Assembly: GCA_965248925.1 (NCBI GenBank)
Contig: CBDFLE010000006.1
Coordinates: 2,112,001 to 2,176,000 of the forward strand
DNA length: 64,000 nucleotides
Reading direction: 5' to 3'
Source of the DNA: Candidatus Multivoradales bacterium
GTDB lineage: Bacteria; Acidobacteriota; Thermoanaerobaculia; Multivoradales; J023
Shown here: piece after piece, positions 16,069-35,506 of the stretch
Position numbering within the stretch: the first letter of the stretch is position 1
Layout: each line of letters begins with the position of its first letter
Translations under genes and position numbers: made by a program
The notes under the pieces: generated by a model
Seen by the model: only the letters and a program-made list of their open reading frames with translations
Told to the model about the DNA's origin: nothing
Databases searched by the model: none

Positions 16069-16084
16069 TATGACAGCCGTCATA
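16069..16084. promoter_or_regulatory. Crp/Fnr-family box TATGAC-AGCC-GTCATA, class II position
   Basis: Palindrome centred at 16076.5, 29.5 bp before -10-like TAATCT (16106); same motif at 42404-42417. Confidence 0.7.
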
Positions 16085-16105
16085 AGGCCAACTTCGTCCT
16101 CGACC

Positions 16106-16131
16106 TAATCTCCTTCTAGATCAGGAGATAA
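16106..16131. promoter_or_regulatory. Candidate Rrf2 operator overlapping -10/+1
   Basis: ATCTCCT-N8-AGGAGAT perfect inverted repeat just upstream of rrf2. Confidence 0.6.
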
Positions 16132-16143
16132 GGAAGTCAACAA

Positions 16144-16587
16144 TTGTTTTCGATGACGGCAAGCTATGCCATGAGAGCCCTCAGCCACTTGGCGCAAGCC
16201 TACGGGTGCGGACCCTTGCCGGGTCGTGATCTGGCCGAACAGGCCGAGATCCCGGTGAGCTACCTGGCGAAGATCCTGCTGGTGCTCAAGCGAGCCGGGT
16301 TCGTCAAGACCACCCGCGGTACCGGCGGTGGCTATCGCCTCGCCCAGCCGGCGAAGGGAATCTCCCTGATGCAGATAGTCGAGCAATTCGATTCTCAGAG
16401 CGCCTTCAGCGGTTGCCTGCTCTATGGCGGTCGCCCCTGCTCACCAGACTGTCCCTGCTCCGCTCATAAGCGCTGGAGCAAGGTCAAGGATACGTACTTG
16501 AGCTTTCTCGAAACGACCACTCTCGACCAGATCTCGAACCCGGCCAGCCTGCCATCGCAGCCCGGCGCGGCGCATGAGAGCAAGTAG
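16144..16587 (+). CDS. Rrf2 family Fe-S transcriptional regulator
   Basis: YAMRAL, SYLAKIL, RGTGGGYRLA; C-x7-C-x3-C-x-C-x2-H. Confidence 0.9.
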   Translation: MFSMTASYAMRALSHLAQAYGCGPLPGRDLAEQAEIPVSYLAKILLVLKRAGFVKTTRGTGGGYRLAQPAKGISLMQIVEQFDSQSAFSGCLLYGGRPCSPDCPCSAHKRWSKVKDTYLSFLETTTLDQISNPASLPSQPGAAHESK

Positions 16588-16602
16588 TCGAGCCCCAGGA
16601 GG

Positions 16603-17487
16603 ATGTCGATGGTCGGCCATCACGCCAACAGCTTAGAAACCGGGAATAGAGCGGCCCGGTGGCGCTTTCTCGCTTTCGGTCTTGCCGTCGTCTTGGCGGC
16701 TGCAATTCCGGCCCATGTGGCGGCGCAGGAAGCTGCCGAAATCTTCCGCCAGAGCTGCGTCAGCTGCCACACCATCGGCGGTGGGCGGCTGGTGGGTCCC
16801 GACCTGGCTCAGGTCAGCGAGCGTCAGGAGCGCGAGTGGTTGATCGGCTTCATCGTCGACCCCAAGGGAGTGCTCGACAGCGGCGACTCCTACGCCCTGG
16901 AGCTGAAAAGTCAGGCCGGTGGCGCGCTGATGCCGCCGGTCGCCGGTATGACCCGCCAGCGGGCCGAGGCACTGCTCGACCTGATCCTGGCCGAGTCGGC
17001 CCTGCCGGAGTCTGAATTCGCCGGTCTCGACATCGGCGACGAGCCCTTCAGCACGGTCGATATCGAACAAGGCCGGCGCATTTTTCTCGGTGCCAGACAC
17101 TTATCGAACGGTGGCCCGCCCTGCCTCTCATGCCACACCGTGGGCAGCCTCGGAGCCCTCGGCGGCGGCCGCCTCGGTCCCGACCTGACCCGGGTTTACG
17201 AGCGTCTGCAAGGGCGCAAGGGCCTGGCCTCCTGGCTGTTGGCACCAGCCACCGAAGTCATGCGGCCGGTCTATGCCGAGCAGCGCTTAACCAACGAGGA
17301 GATCCTGCCGCTGGTGGCCTTCCTCGAAGACCAGGCGCGCCATGGTAGCGAGGATCCCGGTACTTCCCAAATCACATTCCTGCTGTTGGGCTTGGCTGGC
17401 GCGGCGATCGCTTTGGTCCTCGCCGATGCCATTTGGCGGCGGCGTTTCCGCGGCGTACGCCGGCAATTGGTCCGAGGTGAGCGATGA
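16603..17487 (+). CDS. narC: Membrane-anchored di-haem cytochrome c (NarC-like)
   Basis: Signal peptide, CVSCH and CLSCH with GPDL motifs, C-terminal TM; ATGA overlap with narG. Confidence 0.8.
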
Positions 17488-20400
17488 AGATAAAGACTAA
17501 CAACCCATGGATCCAAGACGAGGTGGACCCTCAGTCCCGCGGCTGGGAGGAGTTCTACCGCAATCGCTGGCAGCACGACAAAGTGGTGCGTTCCACCCAT
17601 GGCGTCAATTGCACCGGCGGCTGTACCTGGCAGATCTACGTCAAGAACGGCATCGTCACCTGGGAGATGCAGGGGCTCGATTACCCCCTCTTGGAGCCCA
17701 GCCTGCCGCCCTATGAGCCGCGCGGTTGCCAGCGGGGCATCTCTTTCTCCTGGTACCTCTACAGTCCGCTGCGGGTAAAGTATCCCTACGCCCGCGGCGC
17801 CCTGCTCGACCTCTGGCGGGCGGCGCGGCAGCGCCACGAGGACCCGGTGGACGCCTGGAAGAGCTTGGTTTCTGACCCTGAGTCGCGGCGCCGCTACCAG
17901 CAGGCGCGGGGCAAGGGGGGCTTCCGCCGCACCGATTGGGACACGGTGCTCGAGCTGATGGCGGCGGCCAATGTCCACACCATCAAGGAGCATGGACCCG
18001 ATCGGGTGACCGGTTTCTCGCCGATCCCGGCGATGTCGATGATCAGCTACGCCGGTGGCTCGCGCTTCTTGCAGCTGTCGGGTGGCACCTCGCTGTCGTT
18101 CTACGACTGGTACTGCGACCTACCCAACGCCTCGCCTGAAACCTGGGGCGAACAGACCGATGTGCAGGAATCAGCCGATTGGTACAACGCCAAGTTGCTG
18201 GCGGTGATGGGCTCGAACCTCAACATGACCCGCACTCCGGATTGTCACTTCGCCGCCGAGGCGCGGCACAACGGCACCAAGATGTGGGTGTTCTCACCGG
18301 ACTTCTCGCAGGTCGCCAAATTCGCCGATGAATGGGTGTCGATCAACGCCGGCCAGGACGGCGCTTGGTGGATGGCGGTCAATCATGTGCTGCTCAAAGA
18401 GTTCCATCACGAACGCCAAGAAGAGAGCTTCCTCGACTACACCAAGCGCTTCACCGACTCCCCCTACTTGGTGGAACTGAAGGCCGAGAATGGCCCTTCC
18501 GGCAAGATACTGCGGGCTGGCCAGATGCTGCGCGCCAATCGCCTGGCACCCTACAAAGAGGTCGAAAATGGCGACTGGAAGTTCCTCATGTGGGATACGT
18601 CCGGTGAGCCACGGATGCCGATGGGCAGCTCGGGTTTTCGCTGGGGCAAGAAAGGGCAGTGGAATCTCAAGCTCGAAGATGGACTGACCGGCAAACCCAT
18701 CGACCCAGAGCTGAGCTTCCTGGAGCAGCCCGAAGACGTGCTGCAAGTCCGCTTCGATGATTTCGGCCAGGGCGAGAACTTGTTGCGCGGCGTGCCGGTG
18801 CGCTACCTCGAAACCGCCGACGGCGGCAAGGTCGCTGTGACCACCGCCTACGACCTGCTGATGGCCCAATACGGCGTCTCTCGCGGTCTCGAAGGTGCCT
18901 ACCCGGCGGACTACGACGACGACGCTCCCTACACCCCGGCCTGGGCCGAGAAGTACACCGGCATGAGCCGCGCCATGCTGCTGCGCTTCGCCCGTGAGTG
19001 GGGCGAGACGGCGCTCAGGACCGGCGGCAAATGCACCATTATCATCGGCGCCGGCATCAACCACTGGTACCACGCCAACCTGATGTATCGCGCCGGCATC
19101 CACGCCCTGATGCTGTGCGGCTGCATCGGCAAGAACGGTGGCGGTCTGGCACACTATGTTGGCCAGGAAAAGCTGGCCCCCGGCGAGTCCTGGGGCGCGC
19201 TGGCCATGGGCAAGGATTGGTACGGGCCCTCGCGGCTGCAGAACGCGCCGAGCTGGCACTACGTCCACACTGACCAATGGCGCTACGAGAAGTCCTTCAC
19301 CGACTACCACACGGTGCCTGAGGGCAACACCCAGGCAGGCGGCCACACCATGGACCATCAGGTCAGGGCGGTGCGCAACGGCTGGCTGCCCTTCTACCCG
19401 CAATTCAACGTCAACAGCCTCGACCTGGTCAAGCAAGCCGAAGCAGACGGAGCAAAGACCGAGGAAGAGATCTCCCAATGGTTGGTCGGGAAGCTAAAGT
19501 CGGAGGAGATTCGTTTCTCGGTAGAGGATCCCGACGCCCCTGAGAACTGGCCACGGGTTTGGTACATCTGGCGCGGCAATGCGCTGATGGCCAGCGCCAA
19601 GGGGCATGAGTACTTCCTCAAGCACTACCTCGGCACGCACACCAACACCATCGCCGAGGATATGGCCGAAGATTCGGTGACGGAGGTCAAGTGGCGCGAC
19701 GCACCGGAAGGCAAGATGGACCTGGTGGTCGATCTCAACTTCCGCATGGACACCTCGGCCTTGTACTCGGACATCGTCCTGCCAGCGGCCACCTGGTACG
19801 AGAAAGCAGATCTCAACACGACCGACATGCACAGCTTTATCCACCCCCTGTCGAAGGCGGTGCCACCCTGCTGGGAGTCGAAGAGTGACTGGCAGATCTT
19901 CCGCGAGCTGGCCAAGAAGCAGTCCGAGGTCGCGGCGCCGCACTTCCCCGAGCCGGTTAAGGACTTGGTGGCGGTGCCCCTGGCCCACGACTCAGCGGCC
20001 GAGATCGCCCAAACGCATATCGCCGATTGGAAGAGCGGCGAGGTCGAGGCCATTCCGGGTAAGACCATGCCGGCCTTCAAGATCGTCGAGCGCGACTATA
20101 AAAACCTTTACAAGCAATTCTGTGCTTTCGGTCCGCTACCGCGCAAGGGCGGCCTCGGTGCCCACGGCACCCATTACCCGATCAAGGACTTCTACGACGA
20201 ACTGGCCGCCCGGCAGCCCTGCCGCGAATGGCCCGAGGAAAACTACCCGTCGATCAAGGAGGACGAAGAGGTCTGCAACCTGATCCTGCAATTGGCCTCG
20301 GTCACCAATGGTGAGCTGGCCTACCGCTCCTACCGCGACATGGAGGAGAAGACCGGTCTGCCGCTGGTCCACCTGGCAGAGAAGAACCGTGGCACCAGGG

Positions 20401-21119
20401 TGACCTACAAGGATTTGCAGAGCCGGGTTCAAAGGCTGATCAACAGCCCCATGTGGTCCGGGCTGACCGAGAATGGCCGCGCCTACTCTCCATTCACTTA
20501 CAACGTCGAGAACCTGGTGCCATGGCGCACCCTCACCGGACGTCAGCACTTCTATCTCGACCACGAGCTCTACCTTGAGTTTGGCGAGCACCTGCCGACC
20601 TACAAGCCGAAACCACTGCCCGCGCAATACGCCGACCTGACCTTCACCGAGGAGGAGCAGGCGTCGATGATGCTCAACTACTTGACCCCGCACGGCAAAT
20701 GGCACATCCACTCGACTTACGGTGACAATCAACGGATGACCACGTTGTCGCGCGGCTGCGAGCCCCTGTGGCTCAATCATCAGGATGCCGCTCGGTTGCA
20801 GATCGAAGATAACGATTGGGTGGAGGTCTACAACGATCACGGCGTGGTGGTCACCCGCGCGGTGGTCTCGGCACGGATCCCGCCGGGCATCTGCATTCAA
20901 TATCATTCACCGGAACGCACCCTCGGGGTGCCCAAGTCACCGCTGCGCGGCAACCGCCGTGCCGGTGGCCACAACAGCCTCACCCGGACGCGCCTGAAGC
21001 CCAACCTGATGGCTGGCGGCTATGGCCAGTTCACGTTCCATTTCAACTATTGGGGTCCCACCGGCTGCAATAGAGACACCCACATCTTGGTACGCAAGCT
21101 GCCTGAGCTGAACTGGTAA
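17484..21119 (+). CDS. narG: Nitrate reductase (Nar/NXR family) alpha subunit
   Basis: [47 protein letters not shown]; no Tat signal. Confidence 0.97.
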
Positions 21120-21139
21120 AGAGCGCGGAGGAAGTAAAG

Positions 21140-22626
<1,487 letters not shown>

Positions 22627-22630
<4 letters not shown>

Positions 22631-23295
22631 ATCACCGCGAGCTGAATACCACCGGCTGGCAAGGGCTCAACACTCTCGGCCGGCTATTGATCTATCCCGT
22701 GGGCGACTTTACCGAGCGAACCGCCAAATGCCGGCAACAGTTGGCATGCCAGGGCGAGAGCAAGGTGCTAGAGCTGCTCGCGCCGGCCCTCGAGGCGCTT
22801 GAGCAGTTCTCGCTGCACGAACACGAAGAGCTCTACACCCAGACCTTTGACCTCAACCCGGTATGTACGCTGGAGGTCGGCTGGCACCTCTACGGCGAGC
22901 AGTACGAGCGCGGCCGCTTCCTGGTCCGCGCTCGCGAGTTGCTCACCGCTGTCGGTCAGGACGAAGGCGGCGAGTTGCCCGACTTCCTACCCTCACTACT
23001 TGGCGCGCTACCTCGCCAAGGGGAGAGTGAGGCGATCGACCTGGCCGCCTACCTGGTGCCGGCAGTGAGGAAAATGTGTGAAGCACTGACCGACAAAGAT
23101 CCTGAAAACCCCTACAACACCATTCTCCTCGCCGTCCTCCAAGGGCTCGAAACACGGGTGCCCGGCGACGCGGTAGAGAAAGTCGAGGACCGCTATCGGC
23201 CGCATTTGCGCGCACGGAAGCAGGATCTCGTACAGCTAGGCTCTTTTGCTCAAGGCTCCGCCAACGGGTGCTCTGCCAACCGGGGACCGCAATGA
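22627..23295 (+). CDS. narJ: Nitrate reductase Moco assembly chaperone
   Basis: ELYTQTFD, LYGEQYERG, ELPDFL; position between narH and narI. Confidence 0.9.
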
Positions 23296-23999
23296 GCTGG
23301 ACTAGCCAAATGGATACTTTCTGCTTCGCCATCCTGCCCTACCTGGCACTGGCGCTTTTCTTTGGCGGCACCATCTTCCGCTACCGGACGCAGGCGTTTT
23401 CGTATTCGAGCCTGTCGTCGCAGTTTCTTGAGAATCGCCATCACTTCTGGGCGATGGTGCCCTTTCACTACGGCATTCTCACCGTGTTGATCGGCCACAT
23501 CGTCGCTTTCCTGATCCCGCGGCAGATCTTGCTGTGGAATGCCAAACCGCTACGGCTCTACATCCTGGAGGTCTCGGCGCTAGTCTGTGGCCTGTTGTCG
23601 GTCGTCGGCCTGCTAGCCATCGTCCAGCGGCGGCTGAGTGCCAAGAAGGTGCGGATCATCACCACCCCGGCCGACTGGATGCTCTATCTGCTACTGGCGA
23701 TGCAGCTGGCCTCCGGGGTCTACGTCGCCCTCTTCTATCCCTGGGGCTCCTCATGGTTCGCCGCCTCGGCAGCGCCCTACCTGTGGTCGGTGGTGCGATT
23801 GCAACCCGACATCAGCTATCTGGTGGCCATGCCTTGGGCGGTCAAGCTACACATCATCAACGCTTTCGTAGTAGTCGGATTCTTCCCCTTCACCCGCCTG
23901 GTGCATGTGCTGGTAGTACCCAATCCCTATCTGTGGCGTAAACGCCAAGTGGTGCGGTGGAATGCTGATCCGCGAGCGCTGGCGAGGAAAAGAGGATGA
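23292..23999 (+). CDS. narI: Nitrate reductase gamma subunit (cytochrome b)
   Basis: SSLSSQFLE, PFHYGIL..GH, KLHI, FPFTRLVH. Confidence 0.95.
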   Translation: MSWTSQMDTFCFAILPYLALALFFGGTIFRYRTQAFSYSSLSSQFLENRHHFWAMVPFHYGILTVLIGHIVAFLIPRQILLWNAKPLRLYILEVSALVCGLLSVVGLLAIVQRRLSAKKVRIITTPADWMLYLLLAMQLASGVYVALFYPWGSSWFAASAAPYLWSVVRLQPDISYLVAMPWAVKLHIINAFVVVGFFPFTRLVHVLVVPNPYLWRKRQVVRWNADPRALARKRG

Positions 24000-25522
24000 G
24001 CGAGAACAAGGGCGCAATCAGAGTGCTGATCCTCAACACTCTGGCCTTCACGGTCTGCTTCGCTTGTTGGATGACCAACGGCGTGCTGATCACATTCTTG
24101 ATCGAGAACGGCATGTTCAGCTGGAGCCAATCGCAGATTGGCTGGCTGATCGGTATCCCGGTCCTGACCGGCGCCATCACCCGGTTGCCGGTGGGCATCC
24201 TGACCGACAAATACGGCGGGCGCATCGTCTACACCGTGCTGATGCTGGTGGCAGCAGTGCCGATGTACTTGCTGAGCGAGGCTTCCACCTACGGCCACTT
24301 TGTCGCCGCCAGTCTCGGCTTTGGCCTCACCGGTGCTTCCTTTGCCGTCGGCATCGCCTACACCTCGGTGTGGTTCTCGAGGGAACGCCAAGGCACTGCG
24401 CTGGGTATCTTCGGCGCTGGCAACGCCGGTGCCGCCTTGACCAGCATGGGAGCTCCTTTCCTGCTCCGCCGGCTGACCGCGGACGGCGAAAATATCGACG
24501 GCTGGCGCACCATGCCGAAGCTCTACGCCGGCGCCTTGGTAATCACCGCGATTATTTTCTTCCTGCTAACCGTGTCGAAGAAAGTTGACGACAGCCACAT
24601 CACCAGCTTCAGCCAGCGGCTGGCACCGCTCAAGCACCTGCGGGTGTGGCGCTTTGGTCTCTATTACTTTCTAGTCTTCGGTGGCTTCGTCGCTTTGGCC
24701 CAGTGGCTGATCCCCTACTACGTCAACGTCTACCTGATGCCGGTCACCGTAGCTGGCCTGATGGCCGCGATCTTCACTCTGCCCTCGGGCGTGATCCGCG
24801 CCTTGGGGGGCTGGATGTCCGACCACTGGGGTGGCCGAGTGGTGATGTTCTGGGTGCTCGGCATCTGTCTCGGCGCTTTCCTGCTGCTCAATGTGCCACG
24901 GATGGACATCGAGTCACCGGGCAAAGGGGTGATGGCTCGCAGTAGCGGGGTGGTGACCAGCGTCACCACTGAGGAGATCGTCGTCGATGACAAGTCTTAT
25001 GCCATGCGGGCGATGCCCGAGGGCTGGATCGATCAGCGTGATAGCGGCGTGGCGGTCCTACCCACCGCCGCATTCTGGCAAGAGCCGGTGGTCGAACTAG
25101 GTGAGATGGTCAACAAGAAACAGCTGTTGGCCAAGGGGGTCACCCACATTTTTTTCCAGGCCAATGTGTGGATCTTCACCGGCCTTGTGTTCATCGTCGG
25201 CATCATGATGGGGATCGGCAAGGCCGCGGTCTACCGGCTGATTCCGGACTACTTCCCTAACGATGTCGGAGTGGTGGGAGGCATCGTCGGGGTGATGGGG
25301 GGCCTGGGGGGCTTCGTCTGCCCGATCCTTTTCGGCTACATGCTGCAGTGGACCGGCATCTGGACTACTTGCTGGATCTTCTTCACCGTTCTTGCCACCA
25401 TCTGCTTCTTCTGGATGCAGTGGGTGGTACGAGAGATCCTGCGCGACCAGGCACCAACTCTGCACCGTGAGATCGAACATCCCGACGCCCGCGACCAAGA
25501 TTACGGTTGGCAGAGGGGCTAG
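23996..25522 (+). CDS. narK: NarK1-type nitrate transporter with extra loop domain
   Basis: RLPVGILTDKYGGR, GIFGAGNAG, YFLVFGGFVAL, RALGGWMSD. Confidence 0.92.
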   Translation: MSENKGAIRVLILNTLAFTVCFACWMTNGVLITFLIENGMFSWSQSQIGWLIGIPVLTGAITRLPVGILTDKYGGRIVYTVLMLVAAVPMYLLSEASTYGHFVAASLGFGLTGASFAVGIAYTSVWFSRERQGTALGIFGAGNAGAALTSMGAPFLLRRLTADGENIDGWRTMPKLYAGALVITAIIFFLLTVSKKVDDSHITSFSQRLAPLKHLRVWRFGLYYFLVFGGFVALAQWLIPYYVNVYLMPVTVAGLMAAIFTLPSGVIRALGGWMSDHWGGRVVMFWVLGICLGAFLLLNVPRMDIESPGKGVMARSSGVVTSVTTEEIVVDDKSYAMRAMPEGWIDQRDSGVAVLPTAAFWQEPVVELGEMVNKKQLLAKGVTHIFFQANVWIFTGLVFIVGIMMGIGKAAVYRLIPDYFPNDVGVVGGIVGVMGGLGGFVCPILFGYMLQWTGIWTTCWIFFTVLATICFFWMQWVVREILRDQAPTLHREIEHPDARDQDYGWQRG

Positions 25523-25530
25523 GAGAGGTC

Positions 25531-26184
25531 ATGGGTCACCGCATCACCACTCTCTTGTTGCTGGTCGGCGTCGCCTTGGCCGGTCTCACTTTGGTGCCCC
25601 GGTTAGGCGGCTTGCGCCTGCCCGGCAATCATCAAGGATTCGAGCCAGTGCAGCCGATCGCCTACTCCCACCGGCTGCACGCCGGGGAACTGTCGATCGA
25701 CTGCACCTACTGCCACTCCGGGGCAGAGCGCAGCCGTCACGCCGGCATCCCGCCGGCCGACACTTGCATGAACTGCCACCGCCTGGTCACTTCCTCGCGC
25801 AGTGCCGTGCGGGCAGAGGAAACACTGGCCGAAAAGGAGGGCCGTCAGCCCAATCGGGTCATCAGCCCCGAGCTGGCCAAGCTCTACACCGCCCTTGGCT
25901 TGGGCGAGGACCTGGAGCCGCGATCGGACCTCGAACCGCGGCCGATCGAGTGGCAGCGAATCCACCAGCTGCCCGATTTCGCCATCTTCGACCATCGCCC
26001 GCACCTGGCCGCCAACCTAGAGTGCCAGAGCTGCCACGGGCCGATCGAGGCCATGGAGCGGGTGCGCCAGGTCGAGAGCCTGTCGATGGGTTGGTGCCTC
26101 GATTGCCACCGCGACCCCACCGCCACCGGCCTCGGCGCCAAGGTCGAGGCGGCGTCGGTCGATTGCGTGACTTGTCACTACTAG
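25531..26184 (+). CDS. actA: Alternative complex III pentahaem cytochrome ActA
   Basis: N-terminal TM, PVQPIAYSHRLH, five CxxCH, LSMGWCLDCH, terminal CVTCHY. Confidence 0.88.
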   Translation: MGHRITTLLLLVGVALAGLTLVPRLGGLRLPGNHQGFEPVQPIAYSHRLHAGELSIDCTYCHSGAERSRHAGIPPADTCMNCHRLVTSSRSAVRAEETLAEKEGRQPNRVISPELAKLYTALGLGEDLEPRSDLEPRPIEWQRIHQLPDFAIFDHRPHLAANLECQSCHGPIEAMERVRQVESLSMGWCLDCHRDPTATGLGAKVEAASVDCVTCHY

Positions 26185-26220
26185 CGCCCATGACTCGTGA
26201 AGGAACGTGAAGGATACGAT

Positions 26221-29200
26221 ATGTCGCACCGAGATCCATCCACCCCAAGCAGCTGGCAAAACCTGGATGAGCTGCGCCCTGAGTCGCTGGCGGTCGACCC
26301 TGCCGAGCGCCCCAAGGCGGCGGCCCTGGCGGTCGACCGGCGTGATTTTCTCAAGGCCAGCGGCTTCTCGCTGGCGATGAGTCTGGCCGCCGGCTGTCAG
26401 CGGACGCCGGTCGAGAAGGCGATCCCTTTCCTGGTCCAACCCGAGGAAGTCGTTCCCGGGCGGCCACTGTTCTATGCTTCGACCTGCGCCGGCTGTACTG
26501 CTGGTTGTGGGGTGTTGGTGAAATGCCGCGACGGGCGACCGATCAAGATCGAAGGAAATGCCGAACATCCGCTATCCAAGGGCGGCCTGTGCGCCGTCGG
26601 CCAGGCCGCGCCGCTCGGCCTCTACGATGCTCATCGCCTCAGCGGCCCACTTAAAGGCGGAGCGCCAGCAGACTGGGACGAGGTCGACCGGCAAATCAGT
26701 CAACAGCTCGATCGCCTGGCGGCGACCGGTGGCAGAGTCCGCCTGCTGACCGAGACCCTCAACGGTCCTACCGAACAGGGGGCGACCGACCGCTTTCTGA
26801 GTCGCTTCGCCGATGCCGAACATGTGGTCTACGACCCGCTGTCGCGGTCGGCGATCGCCCAGGCCCACCGCTACTCTGACGGCAAGGCGCTGTTACCGCG
26901 ATATCGGTTTGATCGGGCTGAGGTGATCGTCAGCTTCGCCGCAGACTTCCTTGGCACCTGGATCTCACCGGTGGAGCACACCGCCGGCTACCGTTCTGGA
27001 CGCGATCTGCAAGGCAAGCCACCACGGCTCTCCCATCATGTGCAGATCGAAGGCCGTCTGTCGCTGACCGGCAGCAACGCTGACCGGCGCATGGTCAAAT
27101 CACCGGCGGAGATCAGCGCCCTGTTGCAAGCGCTCGCCACGGCGGTCGAGCAGCATTCTGGAGGAGGCCATGGCACGCGCGACAGTCACAGCAGCGGCGC
27201 AGGTCATGCTGAGCTGGCCAGCGAGCTGGCGGACCGCCTTTGGCAGGCAGCTGGAAAGTCATTGGTGGTCTGTGGCAGTCAGCACCTGGCCGACCAGGTG
27301 GCAACGCGACGGATCAACCAGCTGCTGGGCAACTACGGCTCGACCCTCGATATCGAACAGCCTTCGCGGCAAAAGCTGGGCGACGACCTACGGCTCACCG
27401 AACTGATCCGAGATCTCACCGTTGGCGCCATTGACGCTCTGCTGATCCGCGGTGTCAACCCGGTCTACGATTTGGCTGGCGACCCACGGCTGGCCACTGC
27501 CATCGCCGAGGTGCCGCTGGTGGTGTCGTTCGCCACCCACCGCGACGAGACCGCCCGCCTGGCGGCCTTCGTCTGTCCCGAACTTCACCCGCTTGAAAGC
27601 TGGCGCGACGCCGAGCCGGTAGCTGGCTTGGTGAGTGTCACCCAACCCACGATCCGGCCCTTGGGAGAAAGTCGCGATTTCATCGCCAGCCTGGCCCGGT
27701 GGACAGGCGAACCGGCCACCGCCCGCGAACAGATGCGCCGCACCTGGCAGCAGCAGATCTTCCCGCGGCGGCGGGCTGAGGCGGCGAGTGATTTTGAACG
27801 CTTCTGGGATCAATCAGTTCACGATGGTTTCGTCAAACTCGAGGCGGCGCTCGCGCCGACCGCCGTGGCCGAGCTGGTAGCGAACCCGGAGCTTGCCAGC
27901 AGCCCGCTAGCCCCCAGCTCGACCGAGGCCGGTGTCTTCACCTTGCTGCTTTACCCCAAGGTGGCGCTGTTGGATGGCCGCCACGCTGAGAATCCCTTCC
28001 TGCAAGAGCTGCCCGACCCGATCACCAAGGTGGTATGGGACAACTACGCCAGTCTGTCTCCCCGTGCCGCCGACGAGCTGGGGGTTGCCCAAGGCGATGT
28101 GGTGCGGCTGCGAGCCGAGGACGAGAACGGAGACGAGGCGGCGGAATTGGAGCTGCCGGTGTTGGTGCAGCCGGGGCAGCACGACCGGGTGGTGGCGGTG
28201 GCCCTGGGCTACGGCCGGGTCGGCACCGAGCGCTTTTCCGACGTGGGCCCGCGCTGGCTAGAGGGCCGGCCGACGGTAGCCCCCGGCGAGCAGGTCGGCG
28301 GCAATGCCGCCACCCTGGCGACCCCCACCATGGGTCAGCGCCTGAGCCACCGCGAGGGGGTTCGCCTGGAGTCCACCGGCGGTCGTCATCCGCTGGCCTC
28401 TACCCAGAGCTACCACTCGCTGGACATGCCGAGCGGCCTCGAACCGGCCTCCGGGGAACCACGGCCAATCGTCCAAGAGACCGTGCTGGCGGCCTACCAG
28501 GCCGACCCCGGCGCCGGTGCCCCCCACGCTCACCACATCGAAGGCGATCTGTGGCCCGAGCACGAGTACGAGGGTCACCACTGGGGCATGGCGATCGACC
28601 TCAACGCCTGCACTGGCTGCTCGGCCTGCACCCTCGCCTGCCAGTTGGAAAACAACGTGCCGGTGGTGGGTAAGGACGAGGTGGCCCGGCGCCGCGACAT
28701 GCATTGGCTGCGGCTCGACCGCTACTACCGCGGCGATCCCGAGGCGAGTGAATCGCTCAACATCGTCCATCAGCCGATGCTCTGCCATCACTGCGACAAC
28801 GCCCCCTGCGAGACGGTCTGTCCGGTGCTGGCCACGGTACACAGCTCAGAGGGGCTCAACCAGCAGGTCTACAACCGCTGTGTCGGCACCCGCTACTGCG
28901 CCAACAACTGTCCCTACAAAGTGCGGCGCTTCAATTGGTTCAATTATCCGCATACCGACTTGATGCAGAACCTGGCTCTCAATCCCGATGTGGTGGTGCG
29001 CTCGCGCGGGGTGATGGAGAAGTGCTCCTTCTGCGTGCAACGCATCCAGGCGGCCAAGCAGGAAGCCAAACAGCAGCGCCGTGAGCTGCTCGATGGCGAT
29101 ATCCAGCCGGCCTGTCAGCAGAGCTGCCCGGCGCAAGCCATTACTTTTGGCGATCTCGCCGACCCGCAGAGCCAGGTGGCTCAGCAGGTGGCGGATCCGC

Positions 29201-29301
29201 GCCACTACCGGCTGCTCGAAGAGCTCAATGTGCGGCCCTCCGTGGGCTATTTGCGGCGAGTCCGACATCGCCACCAGGATCAGGAGACTCACCATGGCTG
29301 A
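26221..29301 (+). CDS. actB: ACIII ActB: Tat lipoprotein, molybdopterin-oxidoreductase-like domain fused to Fe-S domain
   Basis: RRDFLK..AAGC, GRPIKIEGN, IDLNACTGCSAC, HWLRLDRYY, YNRCVGTRYCANNCPYKVRRFN, RGVMEKC. Confidence 0.92.
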   Translation: MSHRDPSTPSSWQNLDELRPESLAVDPAERPKAAALAVDRRDFLKASGFSLAMSLAAGCQRTPVEKAIPFLVQPEEVVPGRPLFYASTCAGCTAGCGVLVKCRDGRPIKIEGNAEHPLSKGGLCAVGQAAPLGLYDAHRLSGPLKGGAPADWDEVDRQISQQLDRLAATGGRVRLLTETLNGPTEQGATDRFLSRFADAEHVVYDPLSRSAIAQAHRYSDGKALLPRYRFDRAEVIVSFAADFLGTWISPVEHTAGYRSGRDLQGKPPRLSHHVQIEGRLSLTGSNADRRMVKSPAEISALLQALATAVEQHSGGGHGTRDSHSSGAGHAELASELADRLWQAAGKSLVVCGSQHLADQVATRRINQLLGNYGSTLDIEQPSRQKLGDDLRLTELIRDLTVGAIDALLIRGVNPVYDLAGDPRLATAIAEVPLVVSFATHRDETARLAAFVCPELHPLESWRDAEPVAGLVSVTQPTIRPLGESRDFIASLARWTGEPATAREQMRRTWQQQIFPRRRAEAASDFERFWDQSVHDGFVKLEAALAPTAVAELVANPELASSPLAPSSTEAGVFTLLLYPKVALLDGRHAENPFLQELPDPITKVVWDNYASLSPRAADELGVAQGDVVRLRAEDENGDEAAELELPVLVQPGQHDRVVAVALGYGRVGTERFSDVGPRWLEGRPTVAPGEQVGGNAATLATPTMGQRLSHREGVRLESTGGRHPLASTQSYHSLDMPSGLEPASGEPRPIVQETVLAAYQADPGAGAPHAHHIEGDLWPEHEYEGHHWGMAIDLNACTGCSACTLACQLENNVPVVGKDEVARRRDMHWLRLDRYYRGDPEASESLNIVHQPMLCHHCDNAPCETVCPVLATVHSSEGLNQQVYNRCVGTRYCANNCPYKVRRFNWFNYPHTDLMQNLALNPDVVVRSRGVMEKCSFCVQRIQAAKQEAKQQRRELLDGDIQPACQQSCPAQAITFGDLADPQSQVAQQVADPRHYRLLEELNVRPSVGYLRRVRHRHQDQETHHG

Positions 29302-30682
29302 TCATTCCGGCGCCATTGTGTCGACACCCGGCGTGGCAGTACCCGGCGCGGCAAGGCTGCGCCCGCCGCTGATCGCCGGCGGCAAGTCGCTGGCGGAGGT
29401 GACCGCTGATATCAGCCGGCCCCTAGAACGCCGCGCCGGTCCCCTGTGGTGGGCCGCTTTCTTGCCCTCCCTGGCTTTCTTGTTGCTCGGCGCGGTGGCG
29501 GTGACCTACCAGATCCGCACCGGCATCGGCACTTGGGGGCTCAACAAGACCGTCGGCTGGGCTTTCGACATCACTAACTTCGTTTTCTGGGTCGGCATTG
29601 GCCATGCCGGTACGCTGATCTCGGCGGTGCTCTTCCTGCTCCGCCAGCGCTGGCGTACCTCGGTCAATCGTTCCGCCGAAGCGATGACCCTCTTTGCCGT
29701 GATGTGCGCCGGGCTGTTCCCGATCATCCACATGGGCCGACCCTGGCTAGCCTTCTGGATGCTGCCTTACCCGAACGCGCGGGGTTCCTTGTGGGTCAAC
29801 TTCCGCTCGCCGTTGCTGTGGGATGTGTTCGCCATTAGCGTCTACTTCATCATCTCAGCGACGTTCTGGTACCTCGGCCTGATCCCCGACCTGGCAACCT
29901 TGCGCGATCGCCTGAAGAAGGGCCGGCGGCAGCGCTTGTTCGCCTTCGCCAGCATGGGCTGGAGTGGTTCGTTCAAAACCTGGCAGCGCTACGAGCTGGT
30001 CTATCTCCTGCTCGCCGGGCTGGCAACGCCGCTGGTGTTGTCGGTGCACTCGATTGTCAGCTTCGACTTTGCCACCTCGATCTTGCCCGGTTGGCATACC
30101 ACCATCTTGCCGCCTTACTTTGTCGCCGGGGCGATCTTCTCCGGCATGTCGATGGTGCTGACTTTGATGATCATCGCCCGCAAGACGATGCGTCTCGACG
30201 ATTACTTGACCGACAACCACATCGACTCGATGACCAAGCTGGTGCTGGTGACTTCGCTGATGGTCGGCCTGGCCTACACCACCGAATTCTTCACCGCTCT
30301 GTTCTCGGGCAACGAGTACGAGCGCTTCGCCTTCCTCAACCGTGCCCTGGGCCCCTTCGCCTGGGCCTACTGGATCATGGTGAGTTGCAACGTGCTGGTA
30401 CCGCAACTGTTCTGGTTCCGCCGGCTGCGGCGCAACTTGCTGGTGGTGTTCATCGCTTCGATCTTGATCAACGTCGGCATGTGGTTCGAACGCTTTGTGA
30501 TTATCGTCATCTCCCTGTCGCGAGATTTCCTGCCCTCGAGTTGGGCCAGCTATTCACCGACCTGGGTCGAGCTTGCCACCCTGGCCGGTAGCTTCGGCCT
30601 GTTCTTCACCTGCTTCCTGCTCTTCTGTCGCTTCCTGCCAATGATCGCCATGGCGGAAGTCAAAGGAGTGTTGAAGTCATGA
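29294..30682 (+). CDS. actC: ACIII ActC (NrfD/PsrC family quinol-binding subunit)
   Basis: ITNFVFWVGIGHAGTLISA, RSAEAMT, HMGRPW, NFRSPLLWD, GMWFERF. Confidence 0.93.
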   Translation: MADHSGAIVSTPGVAVPGAARLRPPLIAGGKSLAEVTADISRPLERRAGPLWWAAFLPSLAFLLLGAVAVTYQIRTGIGTWGLNKTVGWAFDITNFVFWVGIGHAGTLISAVLFLLRQRWRTSVNRSAEAMTLFAVMCAGLFPIIHMGRPWLAFWMLPYPNARGSLWVNFRSPLLWDVFAISVYFIISATFWYLGLIPDLATLRDRLKKGRRQRLFAFASMGWSGSFKTWQRYELVYLLLAGLATPLVLSVHSIVSFDFATSILPGWHTTILPPYFVAGAIFSGMSMVLTLMIIARKTMRLDDYLTDNHIDSMTKLVLVTSLMVGLAYTTEFFTALFSGNEYERFAFLNRALGPFAWAYWIMVSCNVLVPQLFWFRRLRRNLLVVFIASILINVGMWFERFVIIVISLSRDFLPSSWASYSPTWVELATLAGSFGLFFTCFLLFCRFLPMIAMAEVKGVLKS

Positions 30683-31242
30683 GTAAAGAAGTCATGTTTC
30701 ATCCCCATCCTTTACATCGGCATCTCGTCAGTATCTTCGACAACGAGACTGATCTGCTGGCGGCGGTGGACCACCTGCACCGCGAGGGGCTCACCATCGC
30801 CGATATTCAGACCCCCTACCCGGTTCACGGCTTGGAGCGGGCAGCTGGCCTGCGCCGCAGCCGCCTGGGCTGGGTGTGCGCTATCGCCGGTCTGTCGGCG
30901 GCAGTGGCCATGCTCGGCTTCCAGACCTGGGTGTCGGCGGTTTCCTGGCCAATCAATGTGGGCGGCAAACCATTCGCCTCGACCCCGGCCTTCGTGCCGG
31001 TGATGTTCGAAGTCGGCGTGCTGGTGGGCGGACTCAGTTCGGTGCTGGCCCTATTCATCTCCAGCCGCATGTTCCCCGGCAAGAAAGCCAAACTGGCGGC
31101 GCCGGGAGTCACCGACGACCGCTTCGTGGTGGTGCTTGAGCTGGCCAATGTTGAACACACCCGCGCTCGGGCGGTGGAACTCTGCCACCAGCACAACGCG
31201 GTGCGAGTGGAAGACCCAGCACCGCTGGGAGGTCAGCGATGA
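30679..31242 (+). CDS. actD: ACIII ActD (DUF3341)
   Basis: TPYPVHGL, WPINVGGKP, PVMFE, TDDRF. Confidence 0.9.
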   Translation: MSKEVMFHPHPLHRHLVSIFDNETDLLAAVDHLHREGLTIADIQTPYPVHGLERAAGLRRSRLGWVCAIAGLSAAVAMLGFQTWVSAVSWPINVGGKPFASTPAFVPVMFEVGVLVGGLSSVLALFISSRMFPGKKAKLAAPGVTDDRFVVVLELANVEHTRARAVELCHQHNAVRVEDPAPLGGQR

Positions 31243-31880
31243 GTGGCACAATAGCGCTCAACCGCCTTCTGGTGATCGTGCTCGCGGCGCTGATCGCCCT
31301 GAACTGGGGGCTGGCCAGGGATAGCAGCGAACGGGGGGTGGAGTTCATGCCCGAGATGGCGCGAGCGATCCCCGCCGAGTCCTACGCCGCCAACGCGGTC
31401 TTGGCCAACTCGATGACCTTGCAGCAACCGCCGGCTGGAGCCATCGCCAGGGGCTGGCTGCCGCTGCATTTGACCGCGTCGCCAGCAGACGCCCTGCGCG
31501 CCAGCCAGGAACTCAGCAACCCGTTCACAGGCGATGACCCAGCTGGCGTAGAGCGTGGTGAGTCAATCTTCGCCCGCTATTGCGTGCTATGCCACGGACC
31601 CAGCGGCGAGGGAGACGGACCGGTGGCCCAACGCGGCTTTCCGGCGCCACCCTCATTGCTCGACGCCCACGCCCAAGCGATGGGCGATGGCCAGCTCTTC
31701 CACATCATCACCTTCGGTCAAGGCAACATGCCGGGCCACGCCGCGCAACTCGACCGCGCCGACCGCTGGCGGGCGGTGCTCAGGATTCGCCAGCTGCAAG
31801 CCGCCGCCGGCCCGGCACCGGATGCCACCGTCAATATCGCCGCCACGACCGACGAAACCGTCTCTGGAGACCAGCCATGA
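31239..31880 (+). CDS. actE: ACIII ActE monohaem cytochrome c
   Basis: PPAGAIARG, CVLCHG, DGQLFHIITFGQGNM, DRW. Confidence 0.88.
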   Translation: MSGTIALNRLLVIVLAALIALNWGLARDSSERGVEFMPEMARAIPAESYAANAVLANSMTLQQPPAGAIARGWLPLHLTASPADALRASQELSNPFTGDDPAGVERGESIFARYCVLCHGPSGEGDGPVAQRGFPAPPSLLDAHAQAMGDGQLFHIITFGQGNMPGHAAQLDRADRWRAVLRIRQLQAAAGPAPDATVNIAATTDETVSGDQP

Positions 31881-33046
31881 TCGCCGAGTCTCGACTCGTC
31901 ACGGCGAGCCGTACCGAGCGCTCCTTGTGGCAGCCGCTCACCATCGCCGGCCTGGTGTTGTTCATCGGTGGTGCCATCCTGACTCCGGATCGCCTCGGGC
32001 CAAGCCTGCTGCTCTATGGTTATGGGTTGCTCGGTCTGGCGATTGGTGGTCTCTACTTCTTGGCCATTCACTACGCCACCACCGCCGGTTGGGCGACCGC
32101 TTTCAAACGGGTGCCGGAGGCTCTGACCAGCCTCGCACCGATCGCCCTGCTGTTGATCCTGGCGGCTTTCGTGACCGGTTCGACGGTGCTCTACCCCTGG
32201 CTTCGTGAAGGCGCAGAAGCGGCTTCCCTGACCCCCTTCAAGGCACGCTGGTTGAGCCCACTGTGGTTCTTCGGCCGCGCCACAATCTACGCCGTCGTGT
32301 TGATCACTTGCGGCGCTGCTCTGCGGCGCCACTCATTGGCCCAAAACCAGGACCGGAATCCAGCCCACACCGCGAGTTGCCGCCGACTGGCCGTGGTCTT
32401 TCTACTCGCTGGCTCGTTTACCGTCTGGCTAGCCTCCTTCGACTGGATCATGGCGATCGAGCCGCATTGGTACAGCACCCTTTTTGGGGTCTACAACTTC
32501 GCCGGTCACTTCACCGGTGGGCTAGCAGCGATCATCCTGGTGGTGATCGCTCTGCAACGCCGTGGTGCCCTGCCGGGGGTCACCAGCGACCACCTCCACG
32601 ATCTTGGCAAGCTGCTCTTCGCCATGAGCACCTTCTGGATGTACATGTGGTTCAGCCAAGCGATGTTGATCTGGTACAGCAACATCGCTGAGGAAGCTAT
32701 TTACTTCAACATCCGGCTGGCCAATGGCTGGCGCCCACTGTTCATCGCCAACGTGCTGCTCAACTGGGGGATACCTTTCCTAGTGCTGCTGTCGCGGCGC
32801 GCCAAGCGCAGCTCGACGGTGATGGTGCGTATTGCCCTGGTGGTGCTGGCCGGACGCTGGCTCGACCTTTACTTGATGATCTATCCGCCGCTCACCAGCG
32901 GGCCGGTGGTCGGCCTGTTGGAGGTAGGCGGCGCGCTCGCTCTACCGGGTCTTGCAGGCTTCCTGATCTGGCGCTGGTTGGAGCGAGTCCCAGCGCAGCC
33001 GAGCGGCGATCCCTATCTGCAAGAAAGCCTCCACCTTCACCAATAG
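31877..33046 (+). CDS. actF: ACIII ActF membrane subunit
   Basis: FDWIMAIEPHWYST, HLHDLGKLLFA, FWMYMWFSQ..IWY. Confidence 0.9.
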   Translation: MIAESRLVTASRTERSLWQPLTIAGLVLFIGGAILTPDRLGPSLLLYGYGLLGLAIGGLYFLAIHYATTAGWATAFKRVPEALTSLAPIALLLILAAFVTGSTVLYPWLREGAEAASLTPFKARWLSPLWFFGRATIYAVVLITCGAALRRHSLAQNQDRNPAHTASCRRLAVVFLLAGSFTVWLASFDWIMAIEPHWYSTLFGVYNFAGHFTGGLAAIILVVIALQRRGALPGVTSDHLHDLGKLLFAMSTFWMYMWFSQAMLIWYSNIAEEAIYFNIRLANGWRPLFIANVLLNWGIPFLVLLSRRAKRSSTVMVRIALVVLAGRWLDLYLMIYPPLTSGPVVGLLEVGGALALPGLAGFLIWRWLERVPAQPSGDPYLQESLHLHQ

Positions 33047-33056
33047 GAGCAGTTCG

Positions 33057-34619
33057 ATGGAACGGCAGAATCTCCACCAGTGGGATGTCGAAGACGAGAG
33101 TTTTTGGACCAAGACCGGTCAGCGAATCGCCAACCGCAATCTGTGGATCTCGATCCCCAGCTTGCTCTGTGGTTTCGCGGTGTGGCTCTATTGGAGCATC
33201 ATCACCACCCAGATGCTGGATCTTCAGTTTCCCTTCAGCAAGGGGGAGCTGTTTACCCTCAATGCCATCGCCGGTCTGACCGGTGCAACTTTGCGCATTC
33301 CGAGTTCGTTCCTGATCCGCCTAGCCGGTGGTCGCAACACCATCTTCTTCACCACCGCGTTGTTGATCCTGCCCGCCCTTGGCGCTGGCCTGGCGCTGGC
33401 CGATCCGTCCACACCGCTGTGGATGTTTCAAGTTCTGGCCGCGCTCTCGGGGCTCGGTGGCGGCAACTTTGCCTCCTCGATGTCCAACATCAGCTTCTTT
33501 TTTCCCAAGCGAGTGCAAGGCGCCTCGCTGGGTTTGAATGCTGGCCTGGGCAACCTCGGGGTCAGCATCATGCAGGTGTTGCTGCCCTGGGTCATGACCT
33601 TTTCTCTGTTCGGCGCGCTTGGCGGTAGCGGCCGGCCAGTTCCCGGTGATGCGGCGAGCACGATCTATATTCAGAATGCTGGTTTCGTCTGGGTGCCCGT
33701 CCTGGCCATCCTGGCCATCGTCGGCTTCTTCGGCATGAACAACCTGCTCACTCCCACGGTATCGCCGAAAGTCAGAGGCACCTCCGCCGCCTTGCTGCAG
33801 ATCAGTAGTCTTCTCCTGGTCGCCTTCCTCACCGCCGGTTGCGGGCTCTACCTACTGCTCGGGGTCGGGCTAAGCAAGTGGATCGTCTTGCCCTTGGTGA
33901 TGACCGCCACGGTCTTCCTGATGAAGCTCTTCCCCGGTGAGATCCGCCAGAGCCTCAACCGTCAGTATGCGATCTTCAACAACAAGCACACCTGGATCAT
34001 GACGGTGATCTACACCATGACCTTCGGTTCTTTCATCGGTTTCTCAGCCGCCTTCCCTTTGGCCATCAAAGTGATCTTCGGCTTCTCGCACGACCCCAAC
34101 GGCGCCGAGTTAGGAATCAATCCGGCAGCACCGAGCGCCTTTGCTTACGCTTGGCTCGGGCCATTGATCGGCTCTTTGATTCGCCCGGTCGGTGGCTGGA
34201 TCTCAGATATGAAGATCGGCGGCGCCAAAGTCACCCAGCTGGTCACTTTGGTGATGATCGGCTCAGCCCTCGGGGTGTCTCACTTCATGGTTCAGGCTTA
34301 CCGTTCCGAGACTCCAGAGCAGTACTTCCCTGGTTTCCTCACCCTCTTCCTGCTGCTCTTCGCGGCTACCGGAGTTGGCAACGGATCGACCTTCCGTTCG
34401 ATGGGCGTGATGTTCAACGATGAACAAGCCGGGCCGGTGCTGGGCTGGACTTCAGCAGTTGCTGCTTACGGCGCCTTCATCATCCCCAAAGTGCTCGGCG
34501 AGCAGATCCAGCTCGGCACCCCAGAGCGCGCGCTCTACGGCTTCGCCATCTTCTACGTCGTCTGCCTGCTGCTCAACTTCTGGTACTACGCCCGCAAGGG
34601 AGCCGAGATCCGCTGCTGA
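33057..34619 (+). CDS. narK: NarK2-type nitrate/nitrite antiporter
   Basis: WDVEDESFW..RNLWISIP, GGGNFASSMSNISFFFP, TFGSFIGFSAAFP, GNGSTF. Confidence 0.93.
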   Translation: MERQNLHQWDVEDESFWTKTGQRIANRNLWISIPSLLCGFAVWLYWSIITTQMLDLQFPFSKGELFTLNAIAGLTGATLRIPSSFLIRLAGGRNTIFFTTALLILPALGAGLALADPSTPLWMFQVLAALSGLGGGNFASSMSNISFFFPKRVQGASLGLNAGLGNLGVSIMQVLLPWVMTFSLFGALGGSGRPVPGDAASTIYIQNAGFVWVPVLAILAIVGFFGMNNLLTPTVSPKVRGTSAALLQISSLLLVAFLTAGCGLYLLLGVGLSKWIVLPLVMTATVFLMKLFPGEIRQSLNRQYAIFNNKHTWIMTVIYTMTFGSFIGFSAAFPLAIKVIFGFSHDPNGAELGINPAAPSAFAYAWLGPLIGSLIRPVGGWISDMKIGGAKVTQLVTLVMIGSALGVSHFMVQAYRSETPEQYFPGFLTLFLLLFAATGVGNGSTFRSMGVMFNDEQAGPVLGWTSAVAAYGAFIIPKVLGEQIQLGTPERALYGFAIFYVVCLLLNFWYYARKGAEIRC

Positions 34620-34647
34620 GCGGCCGCCACCAACCGAGAGAAAAACG

Positions 34648-35157
34648 ATGCGCCGAATACACCTGGTGGGCTCGAAGAATCACGGCAAGACCACCCTGCT
34701 GGTCGAGCTGATCGAAGCCGCCACCCACCGTGGCTTGCGAGTCGGCGCCATCAAACACACTCACCACGCCCACCAGCTTGACAAGCCCGGCAGTGATTCC
34801 TACCGCTTGCGCGGCGCCGGGGCGGCGCCCGCGGCCTTCGTCAGCGGCTCCGGGATAGGCGTCTTCCTGCCTTGCGAACCCGGCTCGTGCTACGACCGTT
34901 TAGAAGAGCTCTACGCCGACTGCGATCTGGTGCTCGTCGAAGGCGATCTCACCGCCCGCGCCACCACTATCGAAGTCTGGCGGGCTGCCGAGGGCAGGCC
35001 GCCGTTGGCGTTGAGTCAGAAAGGCATCACCGCGGTGGTGACTGACGATCCCCTCAACATCGACCTGCCGGTGCTACCTCGTACCGACATCGAAGGGCTT
35101 CTCGACCAAGTGCTGGTCCTGGCTGGGGTGCCAGACGTGGCTGGAGTCCGGGTCTGA
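34648..35157 (+). CDS. mobB: Molybdopterin-guanine dinucleotide biosynthesis protein B
   Basis: VGSKNHGKTTL, IKHTHH, DKPGSDSYR, DLVLVEG. Confidence 0.9.
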   Translation: MRRIHLVGSKNHGKTTLLVELIEAATHRGLRVGAIKHTHHAHQLDKPGSDSYRLRGAGAAPAAFVSGSGIGVFLPCEPGSCYDRLEELYADCDLVLVEGDLTARATTIEVWRAAEGRPPLALSQKGITAVVTDDPLNIDLPVLPRTDIEGLLDQVLVLAGVPDVAGVRV

Positions 35158-35281
35158 GAACCTGGGGGGGGGGGACCAGGCTTGCGAAGACGGACGCTTC
35201 AAGGTGCAGTACAGCCACGGCTCTCTTGCTTACCCATTGCACGACTGTGCTCCGTTATAGTGGATGGTGGAGGCATTACCG

Positions 35282-35506
35282 ATGGATCTACGCTACACAG
35301 CCGTTTTTGAGCAGGTCGGAGAGATGTGGATAGGCTTTGCCGAGGAGCTGCCCGGCGCCAACACTCAGGGCAAGACCCTGGAAGAAGTACGAGAAAACCT
35401 GAAAGAGGCTATTCGGCTCATCCTTGCGGCCAACCGCGACTTGGTCGAGAGGCGCAGTAAGGGCCACCGGGTGATGCGAGAGGAGCTTCTGGTGTCTGTT
35501 GGATGA
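35282..35506 (+). CDS. hicB: HicB antitoxin
   Basis: ELPGANTQGKTLEEVRENLKEAI. Confidence 0.9.
   Translation: MDLRYTAVFEQVGEMWIGFAEELPGANTQGKTLEEVRENLKEAIRLILAANRDLVERRSKGHRVMREELLVSVG

Follow-up and report, generated by a model that had tools for sequence, protein, structure and literature searches.

Here we describe an operon on the plus strand at 16144-35157 of a 64,000-nucleotide window of the Candidatus Multivoradales bacterium genome (assembly GCA_965248925.1, contig CBDFLE010000006.1, positions 2,112,001 to 2,176,000), in which a complete alternative complex III (ACIII), a quinol:cytochrome c oxidoreductase, is encoded among the genes of a membrane nitrate reductase (Nar). In the textbook membrane nitrate reductase, electrons come straight from the quinol pool and energy is conserved by a simple redox loop. 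The combination of nar and act genes found here is real, conserved and almost undescribed, a variant of known systems, and its recurrence across bacteria suggests that two respiratory machines work as one unit. The ACIII itself appears from its sequence to be a distinct subtype with a predicted extra iron-sulfur site.

Starting from Pfam and NCBIfam profiles, with coordinates given as positions in the window, we could name all 15 genes of the cluster, which runs in the order Rrf2 regulator, narC, narGHJI, narK1, actABCDEF, narK2 and mobB:

16144..16587, plus strand: Rrf2-family regulator (PF02082, 105 bits; TIGR00738, 108 bits)
16603..17487, plus strand: NarC, dihaem cytochrome c (PF00034; CxxCH at residues 52 and 174)
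17484..21119, plus strand: NarG, catalytic subunit of cytoplasmic type (TIGR01580, 1522 bits against a cut-off of 1084)
21140..22630, plus strand: NarH, iron-sulfur subunit (TIGR01660, 665 bits, above cut-off)
22627..23295, plus strand: NarJ-like chaperone (TIGR00684, 51 bits, below the cut-off of 59)
23268..23999, plus strand: NarI, dihaem cytochrome b (PF02665, 200 bits; NCBIfam, 133 bits, above cut-off; E. coli NarI, 3e-22)
23996..25522, plus strand: NarK1, NarK-like MFS transporter (TIGR00886, 187 bits, below the cut-off of 312; MFS_1)
25507..26184, plus strand: ActA, pentahaem cytochrome c with an N-terminal membrane helix (PF14522; five CxxCH, no CxxCK)
26197..29301, plus strand: ActB, molybdopterin-like half plus ferredoxin-like half (6f0k_B, 2e-195)
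29294..30682, plus strand: ActC, NrfD-type membrane subunit (PF03916; ATG at 29294 preceded by AGGAGA)
30679..31242, plus strand: ActD (PF11821, 155 bits)
31239..31880, plus strand: ActE, monohaem cytochrome c (one CxxCH; hydrophobic segment at the N-terminus)
31877..33046, plus strand: ActF, second NrfD-like membrane subunit (6btm_F, 2e-49; 6f0k_F, 1e-47; no Pfam match)
33057..34619, plus strand: NarK2, nitrate/nitrite transporter (NarU family, 302 bits; TIGR00886, 262 bits; both below their cut-offs)
34648..35157, plus strand: MobB, molybdopterin guanine dinucleotide synthesis helper (PF03205, 110 bits; TIGR00176, 87 bits, above cut-off)

The 15 genes form one operon, probably driven from a single promoter region. 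The longest open reading frames of ActC, ActF and MobB run into the preceding gene; their likely true starts are 29294, 31877 and 34648, giving junctions of -8, -4 and +28 bp, and NarI likely begins at the ATG at 23292. With starts so corrected, all 14 junctions are overlaps of 4-28 bp or gaps of 10-28 bp. An earlier note on this DNA, made from the letters alone, had described 15 co-oriented genes separated by less than 40 bp and lacking a terminal oxidase. Both statements hold: every gene was identified on the plus strand with no junction above 28 bp, and no oxidase gene occurs among the window open reading frames scanned. To that earlier gene list we add the identities of the first gene, the regulator, and of the last, mobB. 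Terminator-like sites are not in excess within the operon (11, against 12.5 +/- 3.8 in shuffled sequence) and none is intergenic. Contigs built from the same sample by another assembler cover 21431-35500 and 21256-29028 and independently bridge narH to mobB. Of the objections that the same note had listed, misassembly is thereby answered, and internal terminators find no support. One low-depth Logan contig carries one extra base at 35163, in the poly-G run after mobB, and one at 21826; the other runs are as in the window.

The nar genes belong to the Thermus-type NarCGHI class, a class set by gene features, in that a gene for a dihaem, membrane-anchored cytochrome c lies directly before narG. 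NarC has an N-terminal, signal-like hydrophobic segment at residues 23-41 and a C-terminal membrane anchor at 259-277, while the N-terminus of NarG carries the HGVNCTGGC (His/Cys) cluster motif without a twin-arginine (RR) motif. The NarJ call is supported by the position of its gene between narH and narI. As described in the accessible part of PMC7694296, the narCGHJIKT operon of Thermus thermophilus likewise opens with narC for a membrane-anchored periplasmic dihaem cytochrome c, continues with narGHJI and two MFS nitrate/nitrite transporters, and lies in surroundings that are island-like and horizontally mobile. In contrast to the window, the Thermus operon lacks ACIII, and its Nar is paired with Nrc NADH dehydrogenase and the regulators dnr/drp (PMC7694296); the window operon starts with an Rrf2 gene and contains all of actABCDEF.

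By gene content and sequence, membership in the ACIII family is clear: all six subunits, ActA to ActF, are present, co-linear and in canonical order, and ActB aligns over its full length with the ActB chains of four solved complexes (6f0k_B, 6lod_B, 8k9e_B and 6btm_B) at 2e-195 to 4e-167. ActB also carries a Tat-type RRDFLK motif. Like the oxidase-linked complexes of Rhodothermus marinus (6F0K), Flavobacterium johnsoniae (6BTM) and Roseiflexus (6LOD), and like 8K9E, the window complex has six subunits encoded in the same order, with a pentahaem ActA, a monohaem ActE and a PF11821 ActD. Unlike them, it is encoded inside a nar operon, has an ActB that falls in a clade of its own and keeps a C-x2-C-x3-C...C motif; its partner would be NarC/NarI, and not caa3 oxidase or auracyanin. 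The neighbours of these act genes are nar and not cytochrome oxidase (cox) genes, and adjacency to cox is a habit of the ACIII family rather than its defining feature.

To gain insight into how widespread the pairing is we surveyed one-genome-per-species data through the closest ActB loci, a wider ActB set and the closest NarI loci. Nar genes stand alongside ActB in 14 of the 21 closest ActB loci; in the wider search 7 of 80 loci are nar-linked, and most of the others adjoin cox2-cox1-cox3. Seen from NarI the association is tighter. Among the 80 closest NarI loci, 63 have at least 4.5 kb of downstream DNA, and in 55 of these at least two act genes are found in the same orientation; eight of the 17 with shorter downstream DNA have an act gene even so. 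Every NarI locus with at least 7.8 kb upstream has NarC (46/46). After removal of duplicates we count 76 distinct nar-act loci besides the window, from at least 10 phyla, so the arrangement is not unique to this contig, a question the earlier note had left to a neighbourhood search. All 76 are labelled as metagenome-assembled. By phylum label, 32 are Acidobacteriota, 22 Planctomycetota, 4 Ignavibacteriota and 3 Bacteroidota, with single loci in Armatimonadota, Zixiibacteriota, Elusimicrobiota, Binatota, Myxococcota, Methylomirabilota, KSB1 and others.

The arrangement within these loci varies. NarI is separated from ActA by NarK-like genes in 58 of the 76 loci and directly abuts it in 16. Nesting of the act genes between narK1 and narK2, which the earlier note had emphasised, holds for the window and its closest relative (L011) only; elsewhere the narK genes sit otherwise. 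In that relative (L011/L126, genome G011) narG is in three pieces. Two further loci look different again: in L089 (Candidatus Hinthialibacteria OLB16) narC-narG-narH, on the opposite strand, adjoin a cox-linked ACIII of low identity, and in L194 (Candidatus Zixiibacteriota) ActC-D-E-F-like genes of low identity lie upstream, not downstream, of narC-GHJI-narK. Identities of NarH and ActC to the window proteins are correlated (Spearman 0.60, n = 27), which is weak support for transfer of the module as a unit because related rows are not independent.

In the literature we found no characterised Nar-ACIII complex, as the earlier note had supposed; what that note had missed is that the synteny has been printed once, in PMC10732223. 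The accessible part of that paper reports 13 instances, in Planctomycetota metagenome-assembled genomes (MAGs), of Nar genes upstream of a conserved six-gene cluster. The gene set and its place after nar are those of the window, and an 'iron-dependent transcriptional regulator' (Rrf2) lies nearby; among our loci, L010 bears an isolate label (OFTM268) of a type that the paper also uses. There the cluster is said to match no described complex, is not named as ACIII, and is proposed to be a new NrfAH-like nitrite reductase or a component of a respiratory chain; the account, in that part, comes without phylogeny, fusion evidence or a wider survey. The nearest functional parallel is Thermogutta terrifontis, where, in the portion of PMC5673643 available, bc1 genes adjoin narGHI and complex III is suggested to join nitrate respiration. 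A quinol:cytochrome c oxidoreductase is thus encoded beside a cytoplasmic Nar, as in the window, with the differences that it is bc1 rather than ACIII and that no NarC was found (PMC5673643). The accessible portions of PMC9426454, PMC9270275, PMC3903129, bioRxiv 10.1101/197269, PMC10609526 and PMC13608581 describe no link between nar and ACIII.

Within the relatives of the host, the nar-linked complex is separable from the oxidase-linked one. ActB hits in 40 genomes of the same family or order are bimodal, with a copy at 50-68% identity in 7 genomes and a copy at ~40% in nearly all. Six of the high-identity copies were examined: four lie in nar-act clusters and two behind NarC-like/NarI-like genes without narGH. 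Ten low-identity copies were sampled, of which eight are clearly beside cox genes, one weakly and one not at all. NarG occurs in 6 of 41 genomes of the window's order, exactly those with a nar-adjacent high-identity ActB.

We then placed ActB in a tree of 106 rows (IQ-TREE quick search, LG+G4), leaving out the frame-broken or short ActB of L018, L024, L091 and L094, the duplicates L054 and L028, and L004, L005 and all ActB hits covering fewer than 850 residues. A clade with SH-aLRT support of 99 collects 19 nar-linked rows, the nos-linked L032 and 2 rows for which the DNA upstream cannot be seen; not one of the 50 cox-linked rows falls in it. The nar-linked L012 and L050 branch without resolution just outside it. 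The ActB phylogeny that the earlier note had asked for therefore returns a separate nar-linked clade, and since this clade mixes phyla it points to transfer of the whole module.

The clade is also marked by a motif. The molybdopterin-like half of the window ActB contains the four cysteines of a [4Fe-4S] motif (Cys 97, 100, 104 and 132; C-x2-C-x3-C...C), which are kept in all 21 nar-linked rows and in the 3 rows that follow NarC/NarI-like genes. Cox-linked rows have a cysteine in only 2-3 of 50 cases per position (11 of 50 for Cys104). None of the four solved ActB chains has a cysteine at the aligned places, in contrast to the true formate dehydrogenase 7qv7_S, which has all four.

These observations lead us to a model in which ACIII would pass quinol electrons through NarC/NarI to NarGH, a reading that we hold with moderate confidence. 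We read ACIII as working with Nar because the tight packing, the conservation of the pairing, the separate clade, the gene fusions described below and the lack of other acceptors combine to favour it. The operon encodes a Thermus-type Nar, in which NarI and the anchored NarC make up the membrane part, two transporters and a complete nar-linked ACIII, and is headed by a presumably cluster-binding Rrf2 regulator (its four cysteines, 91, 99, 103 and 105, are clustered). On the outer side of the membrane, ACIII would oxidise menaquinol at ActC, and the electrons would travel along the iron-sulfur wire in the ferredoxin-like half of ActB to the c haems of ActA and ActE. The next acceptor would be NarC, the outer haem b of NarI or both; NarI and its inner haem would carry the electrons across the membrane to NarH and then NarG, where nitrate would be reduced in the cytoplasm. 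NarC would be the counterpart of the cytochrome c domain fused to caa3 oxidase in ACIII-oxidase supercomplexes, and if ACIII pumps protons, this would come on top of the charge separated by Nar. We infer the Nar-ACIII contact, the direction of electron flow and any extra proton translocation from comparative evidence. The order from quinol through ACIII and its c haems to NarC/NarI and NarGH, first proposed in the earlier note, is the best reading. An intact NarI means that this route is not required, and in that respect the proposal is weakened.

Gene fusions join domains like those of the two machines in a single polypeptide. In L033 (7671-8855, plus strand) one reading frame encodes a NarI-like domain fused to ActA, and with this fusion as query PF02665 occurs together with multihaem c domains in 54 of 120 protein clusters among the matches listed. 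The histidines of NarI allow these fusions to be compared with the intact protein. H67, H77, H195 and H213 are invariant in 16 NarI sequences from nar-act operons, as is Arg96, which aligns with E. coli Lys86. By the residue numbers and roles of E. coli NarI, the H77/H195 pair would ligate the outer haem and the H67/H213 pair the inner one. Fifteen NarI-like::ActA fusions aligned with the window NarI keep H77 and H195 and have lost H67 and H213. Prediction of a NarI + ActA complex scored 0.00 in two runs in which the controls did not fold, a score that weighs on neither side. Other partners of ActA also occur: of the fusions P0110 and P0082, one joins it to an MFS transporter domain (628 aa), the other to a TehA-like permease domain (558 aa).

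A fusion of another kind is found at L032 (G001:C46:145000-164999; also L125), where a NarC-like dihaem cytochrome is joined to a NarI-like domain in a protein of 550 aa. The minus-strand order there is nosZ, a nosD/F fusion, nosY, nosL, scdA, the NarC::NarI-like fusion and actABCDEF, and no narGH lies within 20 kb. In L096 (Candidatus Angelobacter), NarC-like and NarI-like genes precede act without narGH.

A stronger form of the series model, which we advance tentatively, is a fixed 'nitrate respirasome' in which ACIII would be the sole quinol oxidase, and its c haems or the extra ActB cluster would hand electrons to NarC and to the outer haem b of NarI, from where they would cross to NarGH. 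If this were true, nitrate respiration would yield clearly more energy per electron than the NarGHI redox loop in many Acidobacteriota, Planctomycetota and other uncultured bacteria, and the NarI::ActA fusions would be reduced relics of the same contact.

Work on Thermus supports one joint of the wiring and speaks against its direction. According to the part of PMC7694296 available, NarC binds NarI in two-hybrid assays and is required for an active enzyme; flow through NarC is proposed there to run outward, from NarI to periplasmic reductases, opposite to the direction that the series model needs. Several of our own results weigh on the same side. Loss of the quinol site of NarI had been considered as support for the series route and was ruled out, as the four histidines and Arg96 are invariant; NarI looks fully able to take quinol itself, and the series route is therefore not required. 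Eight of the 63 NarI loci have no act genes within 10 kb. The clade member at L032 stands beside nosZ, so this ACIII subtype can serve a periplasmic reductase. Finally, among 40 further Nar-ACIII genomes from many phyla, which are incomplete MAGs, NrfA occurs in 12 and NosZ in 4.

Most of these points are shared by the strongest rival, which we consider rather unlikely. Here Nar and ACIII would be parallel branches: NarI would take menaquinol directly, as in E. coli, and the co-transcribed ACIII would supply NrfA, NosZ, Nir/Nor or oxidases, with NarC as one carrier. The invariant NarI haem ligands and Arg96, the tie of the same ACIII clade to a nosZ cluster at L032 and the NrfA and NosZ counts given above all favour it. 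So does the proposal that Thermus NarC feeds Nir/Nor (PMC7694296, accessible part), and PMC9270275 (in the part available, citing Refojo 2012) names N2O reduction as a process that ACIII serves in some denitrifiers. The reductases among these acceptors, however, were not found in this genome, which is 97% complete. NirK, NirS, NrfA and NosZ give no match over cut-offs in it, it holds no third haem-copper enzyme (candidate Nor) beyond two cox loci, and the earlier suggestion that this ACIII feeds Nir/Nor accordingly finds no footing here. The only two loci for haem-copper oxidase subunit I each lie near one of the two other ActD loci of the genome.

The wider sample is in keeping with this. None of NirS, NirK, NrfA and NosZ was found in 22 of the 40 Nar-ACIII genomes. 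NirK was above cut-off in none of the 40, with one genome just below at 290 bits; NirS was likewise found in none, a weak result because no control genome gave a match either. In five operon-bearing relatives NirK was not found and the NirS profile gave only partial matches of 30-36 bits, which we read as generic propeller repeats; three of the five have low-scoring haem-copper matches that could be Nor. Against a parallel branch also stand the 6 of 6 genomes of the window's order in which NarG and the nar-type ACIII go together, and such a branch leaves the NarI::ActA fusions unexplained.

That the operon's ACIII is a dedicated one, as the earlier note had held, is borne out by the rest of the genome: of three ActD loci, the two others are both beside cox genes. 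The genome has one cytochrome b gene. In one of its ACIII-cox loci (L005, G000:C6:2421000-2440999) cox1 has an internal TAG, ActB and ActC are scattered over several reading frames and 3 kb away lies a transposase gene (PF21804); this decayed look could mean that the genes are pseudogenes or that the assembly is locally wrong. The genes of the third ACIII are divided between two places, with ActC-ActD-ActF-like genes near cox1, cox3 and cox2 in L004 (G000:C6:3324000-3343999) and ActA-ActB-ActE ~40 kb off in L044 (G000:C6:3283000-3302999). This trio is found again in L036, L085 and L108.

We also weighed a reverse mode, which we judge improbable, in which electrons would enter at cytochrome c, their source being nitrite oxidised by a Nar/Nxr run backwards or a periplasmic donor like Fe(II); NarC would link them to Nar or to an oxidase, and ACIII would drive electrons uphill to quinone. 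In its favour, a similar cluster occurs in Nitrobacter, whose nitrite oxidoreductase includes a NarC homologue (PMC7694296, in the part available), the NarI set contains a Methylomirabilis and a Brocadiia MAG, and ACIII is treated in the accessible parts of the literature on iron oxidisers. NarG, however, scores as the narG equivalog; the genomes of the hosts are large, and heterotrophy is inferred from their size and taxon; and the cluster-binding Rrf2 is in keeping with nitrate respiration or nitrosative stress, as are ScdA and a Crp/Fnr-family gene close by.

It is still less probable that the act-like genes encode a catalytic periplasmic enzyme rather than a quinol:cytochrome c oxidoreductase, for instance the new nitrite reductase that the authors of PMC10732223 put forward in the part of their paper available. 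ActB does keep the four-cysteine motif of true molybdoenzymes, unlike the four solved ACIIIs. Yet it matches ACIII ActB chains over its full length at the values given above and has no PF00384 or PF01568 match at E <= 0.001, ActA has five CxxCH and no CxxCK, and six ACIII subunits stand in canonical order. Chance juxtaposition or assembly error, with no functional link, is negligible: toxin-antitoxin-type genes and low-G+C flanks hint at an island, but the 76 further loci, the separate ActB clade and the independent bridging contigs refute it for practical purposes.

Upstream of the first gene we identified two palindromes on the plus strand:

16069..16084, plus strand: palindrome TATGAC-N4-GTCATA, candidate CRP/FNR-type operator, ~73 bp before the first gene
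16104..16133, plus strand: 30-bp near-perfect palindrome, candidate Rrf2 operator, with 11-nt arms, 91% complementary, 8 nt apart

The first we take to resemble FNR/CRP boxes, and it stays a candidate. A similar box precedes the first gene of related operons at -74 (L054), -89 (L075) and -86 (L029), and none was found upstream of the operons L050, L007 and L015. The second, just upstream of the Rrf2 start, is a candidate operator for the Rrf2 protein.

The surroundings of the operon look island-like. The stretches 35264-38005 and 12000-14000 hold small open reading frames without Pfam match and an AbiEii-type toxin gene (37301-38005), and flanking stretches have a G+C content of 0.53-0.56 against ~0.62. 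Further downstream, 40211-44652 is plausibly an anaerobic or nitric oxide-stress neighbourhood, with a 473-aa open reading frame without Pfam match (minus strand), a ScdA/hemerythrin di-iron repair protein (41684-42355, minus strand), a radical SAM protein (42463-43758, plus strand) and a Crp/Fnr-family regulator (43876-44652, plus strand).

If ACIII and Nar are indeed wired in series, the operon would encode an anaerobic counterpart of the ACIII-oxidase supercomplex and could raise the energy yield of nitrate respiration. The NarC subunit, so far unexplained, would gain a concrete job, and an ACIII subtype with a predicted extra iron-sulfur site would be defined. Because the operon is common in MAGs of Acidobacteriota and Planctomycetota (76 loci in all), it bears on the energy and biomass that soil and sediment bacteria gain from nitrate.

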